Source: Lentisphaerota bacterium (lineage in GTDB: Bacteria; Verrucomicrobiota; Kiritimatiellia; UBA8416; VGWJ01). Taken from it: DNA of 64,000 bases. Below, piece by piece: positions 20,841-59,933 of this stretch. The stretch's first letter is position 1, and each line of letters starts with the position of its first letter. The notes under the pieces were generated by a model that was given only the letters and a program-made list of their open reading frames with translations, ran no database searches and was not told where the DNA came from. The position numbers and the translations under genes are program-made. The stretch lies in contig VGWJ01000012.1 of assembly GCA_016873635.1 (NCBI GenBank), positions 197-64,196 on the forward strand, given 5' to 3'.

Positions 20841-20929
20841 CCACCCCTCACCCACCCCCTCACCCCGGCCCTCTCCCCCGAGGGGAGAGGGAGGGGAGTT
20901 TGGATGGGGAGAGGGACGGGGTGAGGGGG
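20841..20929. repeat. C-tract/G-tract palindromic low-complexity element with G-quadruplex potential.
   Basis: CCCCTCACCC...CCCTCTCCCC-CGA-GGGGAGAGGG...GGGGTGAGGGGG forms a nested inverted repeat with a perfect 10-bp central hairpin at 20869-20891. It lies between convergent genes. Confidence 0.5.
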
Positions 20930-56964: not shown

Positions 56965-58584
56965 ATGGCAGACGCAGCCGCCGTACGATCAGGCGCGCGG
57001 AGAGTTTTTGTCCCGGTCGCACTCCGCGGCAATGCCGCGCTCGTCTTCTCGGTCGCCGCCGCGCTCGTTTTCACCGGCCTGGTCGGCATCCTTGCATCCC
57101 GGCACGAGATGTGGCGGGATGAGCTGCAGGCCTGGCTCCTGGCGCGCGACTCGTCGTCGCCCGCGGCCCTGCTTTACAACATGCGTTACGAGGGACACCC
57201 CGGTCTCTGGCACCTGATGCTCTGGCCGGTTGCCCGCTTCACCTGGAACCCGGCGGGCATGCAGGCGGTTCACGTGCTGATCGCCGGCTGCTCGGCGTTT
57301 CTCCTCTTCCGCTTCGCGCCTTTTCCGGTTCTCATCAGGCTTCTGGCCGCGTGCGGGTATTTCTTCGCGTACGAATGGGCCGTCATCGCCAGGAACTACG
57401 CCGTCAGCGTGCCGCTGCTCTTTTCCGTCTGCGCCCTCTTCAAAGACCGGTGGCGGAACTTCGTCTATATCGCGTCGCTGCTCTTCCTGCTGTGCCACAC
57501 CAACGTTCACAGCATAATCCTCGCGGGCGTCCTGACCTTCTTCCTCCTCGTCGAGTTCGCCGTGGCCTACGCGGCGAAGGCCCGCAAGGCGGAGCTCTGC
57601 CTGGGACGGGTTGCCGCGGGTTTGTTCATCATCCTCCTGGGGCTCTATACGGGGATCGCGCAGACCGCTCCCCCGCCGGATTCCGGATTCGCCACGCGAT
57701 GGGACTACGGGTGGACCGGGGATCGGCGAAACAGCGCGGCGGAGAAGATCGTCAGCGCTTTCCTTGCGGTGCCCGTGAACGACGCGCGCTTCTGGAACAG
57801 AAACAGGTTCCTGGAGCAATCCGCCGGGGAGAAGGGCCCCAAGCCGGCGCCGATTGCCGGCGACAAGAGGATGCGGTACGGCATGCTGATCCTGTTCGGC
57901 CTGGCCGTGCCGTTCTTCAAGCGCCCCTGGCAGGGGCTGTTCTACCTGTGCGCGTCCTTCGCGTTGCTGGCCTTCTTCTACATCAAGTACCCCGGGGGGC
58001 CCCGGCACCACGGCTTCCTGTATCTCGCCTTCTTCGCGGCGCTGTGGATGTCGCATCACTGCACGCCCTGGCGCTTTCCCTGGCCGCCGCTGGAGGCGGT
58101 TCTCGCTTTCGTCGACCGGCGCCGCGTCTGGCTGTTCGTGCCCCTCTTCGCCGTCCAGGCGTGGGGCGCCGGCACGGCGATCGGCCGGGACTGGAAAGAG
58201 ACTTTTTCAACGGCCAGGGACACGGCGCAGTGGCTGGACGCGGAGTTTCCGGACAGGAGCACGGTCTTCTTCGCCGGGAAGTACGGCCCGTCGTCAAGCG
58301 CCGTGGCCGCCTACCTGCGGCTTGACCGGATGTACTACCTCGAGCGCGGCGAGTTCGGATCCTACATCATCTGGGACGGAAACCGCGGCAGGAACATATC
58401 CGACAGCCTGGCCAGGGAAATCCCGCGCGTCATGGAGCAGACGGGAAAAAAGGCGGTGATCATCAGCGACGGGCCGCTTCGCGCGCCGGGCGGGAAACCG
58501 CTCCGCCTGCTCAAGTCCTTCGGCGGCGCGGTTGAGGTGTCGGAGAACAACTGCGTCTATATCATGGAAGACCCGGACCGCTGA
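56965..58584 (+). CDS. Polytopic membrane protein, a putative GT-C-fold glycosyltransferase (PMT/ArnT-like).
   Basis: It has about 11 TM helices. A DE-type motif (WRDE) sits in the first loop. It is adjacent to a GT4 cluster. Confidence 0.45.
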   Translation: MADAAAVRSGARRVFVPVALRGNAALVFSVAAALVFTGLVGILASRHEMWRDELQAWLLARDSSSPAALLYNMRYEGHPGLWHLMLWPVARFTWNPAGMQAVHVLIAGCSAFLLFRFAPFPVLIRLLAACGYFFAYEWAVIARNYAVSVPLLFSVCALFKDRWRNFVYIASLLFLLCHTNVHSIILAGVLTFFLLVEFAVAYAAKARKAELCLGRVAAGLFIILLGLYTGIAQTAPPPDSGFATRWDYGWTGDRRNSAAEKIVSAFLAVPVNDARFWNRNRFLEQSAGEKGPKPAPIAGDKRMRYGMLILFGLAVPFFKRPWQGLFYLCASFALLAFFYIKYPGGPRHHGFLYLAFFAALWMSHHCTPWRFPWPPLEAVLAFVDRRRVWLFVPLFAVQAWGAGTAIGRDWKETFSTARDTAQWLDAEFPDRSTVFFAGKYGPSSSAVAAYLRLDRMYYLERGEFGSYIIWDGNRGRNISDSLAREIPRVMEQTGKKAVIISDGPLRAPGGKPLRLLKSFGGAVEVSENNCVYIMEDPDR

Positions 58585-58587
58585 CCC

Positions 58588-58747
58588 GAATGGCGCCAAG
58601 ATAAGACAGCTCCGCATGACGTCCTTTGTCGCGAGCTTTGTCGCGAGCTTTGTCGAACCCGCTATGCGCGAACCCCTGGCGACTCCGACGAAGCTCGCGA
58701 CAAAGCTCGCGACAAAGAGGGTGAAGAGGCTTATCTTGGCGCCATTC
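58588..58747. mobile_element. MITE-like 160-bp palindromic element with 18-bp perfect terminal inverted repeats and an 11-bp flanking direct repeat that looks like a target-site duplication.
   Basis: The terminal inverted repeats are GAATGGCGCCAAGATAAG (58588-58605) and CTTATCTTGGCGCCATTC (58730-58747). The flanking direct repeat ACCGCTGACCC sits at 58577-58587 and 58748-58758. The internal 32-bp inverted repeat is built from tandem 12-mers (CTTTGTCGCGAG). Confidence 0.5.
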
Positions 58748-58799
58748 ACCGCTGACCCCGCGGAGGGCGACCGCCCTTTCCGGGGCGGGAAATGCGCCG

Positions 58800-59933
58800 T
58801 CAGCGCGACGGCGCCCGCCCCAGGCAGCGCTCGATGCTGGCGGCCAGGCCGGCGATGAAATGCCGCGTATCGAAGCGCTCCGCGTTGCGGCGGATGGCGT
58901 CCGGATCCCAGCGCGTCCCGGCGGCCCGGTCCACGGCTTCGCGCAGCGCTTCCTCGGTCTGCGCGTGAAAGAAGACGCCGCTGACGCCGTCCCGGACCGT
59001 TTCCAGCGCGCCGCCGACGCCGTAAGCCACCACGGGCTTGCCGCAGGCCTGCGCCTCCAGCGGCACGATGCCGAAATCCTCCTCGCCGGGGAAGACCAGC
59101 AACCGGCAGCCGCGGTAGGCATCGAGGAGTTCCGCGTCGGAACGCCGGCCCAGGAACGTCACGTTCGGCCCGGCCGCCGCCCGCAGCCGCGCGGCTTCGC
59201 CGCCCGCGCCGGCGATCCTCAGCGGGCGGCCGGAAGCGCTGTAGGCCCGCACGGCAAGGTCGACGCGCTTGTAAGGCACCAGCGCCGACACGACAAGGTC
59301 GTAGGATTCCGGCCCCGCGCCGCCGGGAGTGAATCGCGCCGTGTCCACGGGCGGGTAAACCACGTCCGCCTCGCGGCCGTAGAAATCGGCGATGCGCTTG
59401 CGCACGTGGCGGCTGATGGCCACGAAGCGGGTGACGCCCGCGGCGGTGGCGCGGTCCCAGCGCCGCAGGGCCGCCAGCAGGGGCCTGGCCAGCAGCGCCT
59501 TGACCGGATTCGATCCGAAATATTCGCGAAAGAACGTCCAGGCGTAGCGCATGGGCGTGAAGCAGTAGCACAGGTGCGGCGTGCCCGCCGGGACGCGAAC
59601 GCTCTTGGCCACGCAGTGACTGGTGCTGATCAGCAGGTCCGGGCGGCCGACGCGCAGGCTTCTGACGGCGGCCGGAAAGAGCGGGAGCAGGGCGCGGTAA
59701 TGCCGCGTGACGCCCGGCAGGCGCTGCAGCCAGGAGGCGCGAACGGGATGCGCGTTGATCGCCGCGCTGACCGCTGCCGCGTCATGGATCAGGGTGTGCA
59801 CGGCCGCGTCCGGGAAGGCGCGGCACAGTATCTCGAGCACGCGCTCGCCGCCGCGCATGCCCGTCAGCCAGTCGTGGCACAACGCCACGTCGAGCGCGCG
59901 CCAGGAGGCGGGAAAATCCGGTTCGCTGTTCAT
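58800..59933 (-). CDS. GT4-family glycosyltransferase.
   Basis: It has the GT-B C-terminal EX7E region (FPGEEDFGIVPLEAQACGKPVV). Confidence 0.75.
   Translation of the reverse strand: MNSEPDFPASWRALDVALCHDWLTGMRGGERVLEILCRAFPDAAVHTLIHDAAAVSAAINAHPVRASWLQRLPGVTRHYRALLPLFPAAVRSLRVGRPDLLISTSHCVAKSVRVPAGTPHLCYCFTPMRYAWTFFREYFGSNPVKALLARPLLAALRRWDRATAAGVTRFVAISRHVRKRIADFYGREADVVYPPVDTARFTPGGAGPESYDLVVSALVPYKRVDLAVRAYSASGRPLRIAGAGGEAARLRAAAGPNVTFLGRRSDAELLDAYRGCRLLVFPGEEDFGIVPLEAQACGKPVVAYGVGGALETVRDGVSGVFFHAQTEEALREAVDRAAGTRWDPDAIRRNAERFDTRHFIAGLAASIERCLGRAPSR

Follow-up and report, generated by a model that had tools for sequence, protein, structure and literature searches.

The 64,000-nucleotide (nt) stretch of contig VGWJ01000012.1 analyzed here (the window) comes from a lake Lentisphaerae bacterium, has a G+C content of 65.5 to 70%, and carries a 160-bp element at positions 58588 to 58747. 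The element begins 3 nt past the stop codon that ends a plus-strand gene (56965 to 58584), between this gene and a convergent neighbor. Perfect 18-bp terminal inverted repeats (TIRs) bound the element, an identical 11-bp direct repeat flanks it, and its interior is a two-armed inverted repeat of 12-mers. [quoted passage not shown] TIRs shared with an IS4-family insertion sequence (IS), the 11-bp duplication of that family, and multiple copies bear this out, and we put at about 0.9 the probability that this is a true IS4-family MITE belonging to the IS4 subgroup. The features of the locus, in window coordinates, are listed below.

56965 to 58584, plus strand: upstream flanking gene encoding a 539-amino-acid (aa) predicted membrane protein, with TGA at 58582 to 58584
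58577 to 58587, no strand: left copy of the 11-bp target-site duplication, sequence ACCGCTGACCC
58588 to 58605, plus strand: left 18-bp TIR, GAATGGCGCCAAGATAAG, the putative end for transposase binding and cleavage
58606 to 58623, plus strand: left subterminal segment, ACAGCTCCGCATGACGTC, similar to the subterminal sequence of full-length relatives, such as ACAGCTTTGTGATGAC in L042
58624 to 58662, plus strand: left arm of the inner inverted repeat, with 12-mers CTTTGTCGCGAG at 58624 to 58635 and 58636 to 58647 and a partial unit at 58648 to 58655
58663 to 58678, no strand: 16-nt central loop of the hairpin, with single-base variants in L151 and L162
58679 to 58717, minus strand: right arm of the inner inverted repeat, with 12-mers at 58686 to 58697 (one G/A mismatch) and 58698 to 58709 and a partial unit at 58710 to 58717
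58718 to 58729, no strand: right subterminal spacer, AGGGTGAAGAGG, lacking complementarity to the left subterminal segment
58730 to 58747, minus strand: right 18-bp TIR, CTTATCTTGGCGCCATTC, the exact reverse complement of the left TIR
58748 to 58758, no strand: right copy of the 11-bp target-site duplication, ACCGCTGACCC, identical to the left copy
58800 to 59933, minus strand: downstream flanking gene encoding a 377-aa GT4-type glycosyltransferase (Pfam Glyco_transf_4 / Glycos_transf_1)

Structure of the element

The two termini (58588 to 58605 and 58730 to 58747) were reverse complements at 18 of 18 positions, as had been claimed, and ACCGCTGACCC was present on both sides, the left copy containing the stop codon of the preceding gene. 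With as many as 3 mismatches allowed, the TIR 18-mer occurred in the window at these two sites only, where 0.02 occurrences were expected by chance. A search for further copies of the 12-mer block placed it at a single location, and no additional TIR or 12-mer block was found within the window. The core was described correctly as a 32-nt inverted repeat matching at 31 of 32 positions, but the copy number of CTTTGTCGCGAG is 2.67 per arm instead of the proposed 2.5. At 90% identity the inverted repeat reaches 39 nt (58624 to 58662 paired with 58679 to 58717) around the 16-nt loop. The coding content of the 160 bp was limited to spurious high-GC open reading frames (ORFs), and an Rfam scan of the whole window returned only two tRNAs, with no family at the element. 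An identical 182-bp segment was recovered in independently assembled contigs from several samples (L148 to L150, L156, and L157), which excludes an assembly artefact. Lake samples containing the locus are JGI 3300020074, 3300020083, 3300020084, 3300020221, 3300020222, and 3300020603.

Autonomous IS4-family partners of the TIR

A MITE implies a cognate transposase elsewhere, and the expected IS with matching TIRs was found in metagenomes as a group of IS4-family elements of 1.54 to 1.90 kb. Scanning metagenomes with GAATGGCRCYAAGATAAG yielded at least 120 loci, fetched through the TIR alone. In 12 of those listed (L031, L032, L073, L084, L090, L116, L117, L123, L124, L130, L139, and L143) the TIRs formed pairs 1541 to 1899 bp apart, and L084 is a 1576-bp contig made up of the element alone. 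These partners encode an ORF of ~490 aa that matches Pfam DDE_Tnp_1 and scored 238 and 230 bits against the NCBIfam model NF033592, "IS4 family transposase" (IS4_1), for which the cutoff is 115. Alignment with InsG of Escherichia coli IS4 gave 27% identity over the full length (E = 1e-35), with the catalytic D, D, and E residues and the R-E-K of the YREK motif in register. In L032 the complete signature, Y-(2)-R-(3)-E-(6)-K, is YLRRWEIELHFREIK, in L031 it is YRRRWMAELFLRDIK, and L084 has F in place of Y. A transposase lay beside the TIR in 37 of the 120 listed metagenome loci. The transposase family comprises at least 6,835 protein clusters at E ≤ 1e-30, mostly on contigs of ~2 kb, and the listed members present at NCBI are named "IS4 family transposase" and come from metagenome-assembled genomes (MAGs) of Verrucomicrobia, Blastocatellia, and Nevskiales.

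The exact 18-mer was also scanned against representative genomes totaling 596 Gb, a set that does not include the host MAG of the window, given that none of the loci recovered had both window TIRs. This returned 27 loci, compared to a chance expectation of ~17 (596 Gb x 2 strands / 4^18, assuming uniform base composition). About half of the 27 looked like chance occurrences, having neither a partner TIR nor the target motif described below, and came from Shewanella, Parapedobacter, Azonexus, and others. The other half were real elements with an imperfect partner TIR 110 to 380 bp away, in MAGs of Verrucomicrobiota, Kiritimatiellae, Lentisphaerae, and a few others, mostly in the Planctomycetes-Verrucomicrobia-Chlamydiae (PVC) group. 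Scans of viral contigs gave 0 matches to the core and 2 to the TIR.

Partners fell into two size classes, 1541 to 1576 bp and 1839 to 1899 bp. The larger form (~1.85 to 1.90 kb) contained a second ORF, divergent from the transposase and matching Pfam DUF6788 (E = 3e-10 and 1e-14). Elements with this ORF were L032 (226 to 2121) and L031 (6676 to 8556), along with L039, L073, L111, L117, L124, L130, L139, L143, and L147, and no DUF6788 ORF was seen in the ~1.55-kb partners L084, L116, and L123. Both ORFs of the larger form run outward and end at a TAG within the TIR (CTTATCTTAG); because both terminate inside the inverted repeat, it gives them a common C-terminal peptide (...NPKSPLS in L032). 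A literature search on DUF6788 found no paper. Some TIR pairs, for example those of L066 (603 to 1538) and L090 (547 to 2445), had flanks that were inverted copies instead of direct repeats. L066 pairs TATGGTGTCCC with GGGACACCATG, and L090 pairs GGCATGAATGC with a near complement of it, an arrangement that could reflect inversion between copies, insertion into a palindromic target, or longer inverted repeats in these elements.

Target-site duplication and target preference

The length of the flanking repeat proved to be a signature of the family, which upholds the proposal that it is a target-site duplication. Unrelated contigs contained 23 short TIR pairs, 22 of them 80 to 381 bp long and one of 936 bp, and 19 of the 23 had a duplication of their own (11 bp, in one case 12 bp, with ≤1 mismatch). 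The full-length elements L031 and L032 likewise had their own duplications of 11 to 12 bp. A weight matrix built from 22 aligned, reconstructed target sites (L002...L144 and window 58577 to 58587) gave the consensus NNNNCTGWCCC, with counts per 22 sites of 14 for the first C, 21 for T, 19 for G, 19 for W, and 21 for each of the last three Cs, and with another C usually next. The window duplication, ACCGCTGACCC, matched 7 of 7 specified positions. The motif occurs in both orientations relative to the element and was found at one edge of the 11-nt flank in 110 of 188 TIR ends.

This preference is asymmetric and lies inside the duplicated 11 bases. A few sites, such as GGGTCTGACCC and GGGTCAGTCCC, are near-palindromic, which suggests two half-sites read by a dimeric complex. 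Relatives were multicopy within single MAGs, as seen for L016 and L017 in Kiritimatiellae and for L006 and L008 in binchicken_co97_82. L016 (80 to 97) and L017 (134 to 265), from one Kiritimatiellae MAG, are two copies of one MITE subfamily at different loci, and their flanks are alike but opposite in orientation to the element. The duplication of L017, 12 bp in length, is CGTGCTAGCCTC, and the L016 flank, when reverse complemented, reads CACGCTAGCCTC, a pattern that may point to a different target preference in this lineage.

Further copies and alleles of the 160-bp unit

Copies of the unit itself were sought by concatenating its four ORFs and querying a protein collection for spurious gene calls. 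The single match led to contig Ga0194110_10030697 (L162), from the same lake metagenomes, where positions 1947 to 2106 are identical to the window element at 156 of 160 bases. This second copy lies in a 795-nt spacer between co-directional sulfatase and GH141-like genes and has a perfect 11-bp duplication of its own, CCGTCTAACCG. The same filled locus was present in three more samples (L163, L164, and L166), and in at least three samples copy 2 and the window locus were found together. In addition, L167 (1380 to 1575) contains the same 160-bp element with the right flank of copy 2, but its left flank, GGGTATGAACG, is another one and lies next to a gene encoding a 181-aa predicted protein; either this marks a third insertion site, or recombination or mis-assembly between copies produced the junction. 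A single copy in the genome had been named among the grounds for giving up the MITE reading, and the data instead contain another locus, where the 11-bp duplication is a different one, and a third left flank.

Differences among copies and alleles tended to affect both arms. A 136-bp allele in L158 (3096 to 3292) and L151 (at a contig end) has one 12-mer fewer on each arm, TIR position 10 is C:G at both ends in the window and T:A at both ends in copy 2, and the inner arms of copy 2 are free of the single G/A mismatch of the window. Such paired changes could result from template-switch correction of a quasi-palindrome, from selection for the hairpin, or partly from assembly collapse.

Several assemblies broke inside the element, including L151 (a 1513-bp contig) and L159 (which ends 43 nt past the stop codon), with 5 similar places elsewhere. 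These breaks fit a repeated or palindromic sequence that assemblers could not cross. The element accounts for the breaks and hybrid junctions seen at this spot in assemblies of the population. Just upstream of copy 2, the L162 spacer contains nested inverted-repeat pairs (1685 to 1711 with 1885 to 1911, 27 nt at 96%, and 1643 to 1670 with 1772 to 1799, 28 nt at 89%), and these pairs, spanning 1643 to 1911, may be other small palindromic elements.

Folding of the element and transcription termination

The element region folds as one long compound hairpin, in keeping with what had been claimed. Its minimum free energy (MFE) was -111.2 kcal/mol, compared to -62.2 +/- 4.2 kcal/mol for shuffled sequences (z = -11.75, with 0 of 200 shuffles as stable). 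Such a structure supplies the G+C-rich stem-loop of an intrinsic terminator. No U-tract followed the stem on either strand, where the sequence is ACCGCTGACCCC (plus) and GGGTCAGCGGTCC (minus), and a terminator scan called no site at the element. With copy 2 also lying between co-directional genes, the further proposal that the element acts as a bidirectional terminator was not sustained. The lack of a U-tract, the position of copy 2, and the unrelated cores of kindred MITEs together argue that any effect on transcription would be a by-product of where the element landed.

Flanking genes and the reconstructed empty site

No Pfam match was found for the membrane protein encoded at 56965 to 58584. 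An identical protein at NCBI is FJ225_04080 [Lentisphaerae bacterium], from a MAG, and the FJ225 locus tag was on none of the 120 named best transposase matches, among the matches listed. The host MAG is the assembly with protein MBM4142760.1 and locus-tag prefix FJ225. If the element and a single duplication copy, 171 bp in all, are taken out, the two stop codons are separated by 44 nt and both coding sequences are unchanged. The reconstructed empty site, consisting of the left flank, one ACCGCTGACCC, and the right flank, reads ...GAAGACCCGGACCGCTGACCCCGCGGAGGGCGACC... Because the stop codon of the membrane protein gene falls within the duplicated 11 bp, the protein is unaltered by the insertion. 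For annotation, a 171-bp insertion between convergent genes is thereby accounted for, with both genes intact.

Elsewhere in the window, and unrelated to the element, positions 20855 to 20929 form a strong G+C-rich inverted repeat with 24-nt arms that are 96% complementary, CCCCCTCACCCCGGCCCTCTCCCC and GGGGAGAGGGACGGGGTGAGGGGG, and a 27-nt loop.

Mechanism and alternative explanations

This analysis itself shows the ends of the element, the rule that its duplication follows, the preferred target, the existence of multiple copies, and the transposase family linked to the TIR. The route by which an IS4-subgroup MITE would have reached this site can be outlined as follows. A full-length relative would provide, in trans, a DDE transposase that binds both 18-bp TIRs and excises the 160-bp unit by cut-and-paste, as judged by analogy with IS10, IS50, and IS231A (PMC2266710). 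Insertion at a preferred 5'-NNNNCTGWCCC-3' site would proceed through 11-bp staggered cuts, with gap repair duplicating the 11 bp. At the window locus, the target ACCGCTGACCC would have overlapped the stop codon of the membrane protein gene, placing the element 3 nt past the stop and leaving both convergent genes intact. The core appears not to derive from an IS and to be a quasi-palindrome of 12-mer repeats, a configuration expected to give a very stable whole-element hairpin in single-stranded DNA or read-through RNA.

Several results weigh against this account. An empty-site allele of the window locus was not found: contigs of the same population, reached through exact-protein look-ups of both flanking genes, were all filled or ended inside the element. 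Homologues of the membrane protein in relatives, 52 to 58% identical, stood in other, nonsyntenic gene neighborhoods and provided no empty site. Nor did copy 2 yield one among contigs carrying members of the 90% protein clusters, which were filled (L163, L164, and L166), had unrelated sequence upstream (L165), or carried the hybrid junction (L167). The check suggested with the original prediction, to count copies and look for empty sites, thus succeeded for further copies of the 160-bp unit and gave an empty site at neither locus. Copy 2 may reside in a different organism of the same community, as judged from its composition: its G+C content is 62%, compared to 65.5 to 70% for the window, and its tetranucleotide correlation with the window is 0.91 to 0.93, compared to 0.95 to 0.99 within the window. 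An IS4-type transposase was absent from the 64-kb window. When the 124-bp core was compared with all fetched IS and MITE sequences, only chance matches of 12 to 16 nt appeared and no full-length element was matched, and the resemblance to IS ends is limited to the left 16 to 18 subterminal bases, as in L042.

The element could instead be mainly a structural or regulatory hairpin of the host, for instance one that terminates transcription in both directions, affects RNA stability, or binds a protein as a palindrome. It would then have been exapted, and its mobile features would be secondary. Its extreme stability (-111 kcal/mol), its location between convergent genes, and the concerted change of its arms among alleles and copies would all suit such a role, and transcript processing is influenced by some other MITEs of bacteria, Correia and ERIC among them. 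We consider this unlikely. A T/U run is missing after the stem on either strand, the terminator scan was blank at the element, no Rfam family matched, and the cores of related MITEs are unrelated to this one. The 795-nt spacer holding copy 2 separates two co-directional genes, so the location is not specific to convergent pairs, and template-switch correction of quasi-palindromes could explain concerted arm changes without selection.

If a full-length IS4-family element had inserted at this site and lost its interior in situ, so that the 160-bp unit never moved as a miniature, perfect TIRs and a perfect duplication would also remain, and the left subterminal 16 to 18 nt would resemble IS ends as they do. 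Yet the unit, including its non-IS core, recurs at 156 of 160 bases at another locus, where the 11-bp duplication is a different one, and next to a third left flank, and the core lacks similarity to any fetched full-length element. Recurrence with a distinct duplication means that the short unit itself transposed, which rules out a simple deletion remnant and leaves explanations of this kind very little probability. Smaller still is the chance that the element is immobile, the product of a local duplication or of mis-assembly at a palindrome, even though several assemblies break inside it (L151, L159, and the 5 similar places). Its sequence is identical in at least 5 independent assemblies, the 18-mer was expected only 0.02 times in the window, the TIR is common to hundreds of transposase-linked elements, and the duplication obeys the family rule in both length and sequence. 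A single segmental duplication is an unlikely source of the three flanks because their 11-mers and flanking genes differ.

Two groups of origins were rejected. IS5, IS630, Tn3, and IS200/IS605 do not fit in duplication length or end structure, and a REP/BIME-type element was set aside because the TIR has a clear link to a different type of transposase.

Implications

The window element is a well-known, ordinary kind of mobile element and reveals no new mechanism. What it offers is a simple signature, the 18-bp TIR plus the NNNNCTGWCCC rule, for a large IS4-type family and its miniature derivatives. This signature is usable in Lentisphaerae, Kiritimatiellae, Verrucomicrobiota, and other environmental bacteria whose mobile elements are poorly catalogued. 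Specialists may find interest in the strict target motif, in the DUF6788 gene present in only some of the parental elements, and in the way the two arms change in concert among alleles and copies.

A more ambitious proposal, which we offer as speculation and think improbable, would make the element the tip of an undescribed and very abundant IS4-subgroup clade. Such a clade (at least 6,800 transposase clusters) would be defined by a strict CTGWCCC in the 11-bp duplication and an optional divergent DUF6788 gene that takes its stop codon and C-terminal peptide from the inverted repeat, and its miniatures would have arms that evolve in concert. If this were true, either selection would be maintaining the hairpin as a structure exapted at the RNA or DNA level, or template switching would be perfecting it over and over, and natural populations would provide a direct readout of quasi-palindrome correction.

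Comparison with known systems

The closest counterpart is the IS4 subgroup, for which published ends are -AATR--------WTW----, the transposase motif is YREK, direct repeats are 10 to 13 bp, and sizes range from 1400 to 1650 bp (De Palmenaer, Siguier and Mahillon 2008, PMC2266710, Table 1). Consistent with this pattern, the window TIR GAATGGCGCCAAGATAAG has AATG at positions 2 to 5 and ATA at positions 14 to 16. The TIR of E. coli IS4, TAATGCCGATCAGTTAAG, is also 18 bp long and is identical to the window TIR at 12 of 18 positions, and its 12-bp duplication in MG1655 and the 11-bp duplication in the window both fall within 10 to 13 bp. The partners encode a DDE transposase of NF033592, with YREK complete in L032 and L031 and F for Y in L084. 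Unlike IS4, the window element has no transposase, and the partner transposases are only 27% identical to InsG. Their nearest plasmid-borne relatives, at ~40% identity, are cyanobacterial IS4-family enzymes, one annotated as "IS4-like element ISAcma16 family transposase." Partners of 1541 to 1576 bp are within the published size range, whereas many, at 1839 to 1899 bp, exceed it because of the second, divergent DUF6788 ORF. Some members of the subgroup are reported to show a pronounced preference for their targets (PMC2266710); the preferred CTGWCCC inside the duplicated 11 bp is counted here as a difference of the present family.

MIC231 cassettes, derived from IS231 in Bacillus cereus, are mobilized in trans by the IS231 transposase, are larger, and often carry passenger genes. 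They resemble the window element in being nonautonomous, derived from the IS4 family, and bounded by parental TIRs (cited in PMC2266710, refs 2 and 3). They differ in belonging to the IS231 subgroup, which has direct repeats of 10 to 12 bp and CAT ends (PMC2266710), whereas the window element is 160 bp long with a noncoding palindromic core. BrickBuilt of Porphyromonas gingivalis is a MITE whose interior is a tandem-repeat minisatellite with a 23-nt unit (Klein et al. 2015, PMC4596501). It is thus, like the window element, a bacterial MITE with a tandem-repeat interior, and the number of 12-mers in the latter varies among alleles. The BrickBuilt array is direct, with duplications inconsistent in length and sequence, whereas the window element combines a symmetric two-arm array of 12-mers with a strict 11-bp duplication.

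Correia, ERIC, and RUP-type MITEs are intergenic, noncoding elements of ~100 to 200 bp with TIRs that form long hairpins when transcribed. They can affect mRNA processing or termination, with functional effects documented, and they derive from different parental IS families with different duplications (TA for Correia). The window element is similarly short, intergenic, noncoding, TIR bounded, and hairpin forming, and differs from them in its parental IS family and its duplication. It also has several of the attributes by which prokaryotic MITEs are recognized: short length (~50 to 600 bp) without a transposase, TIRs, a duplication of the parental length, TIRs matching those of an autonomous element, and copies at different sites with duplications of their own.

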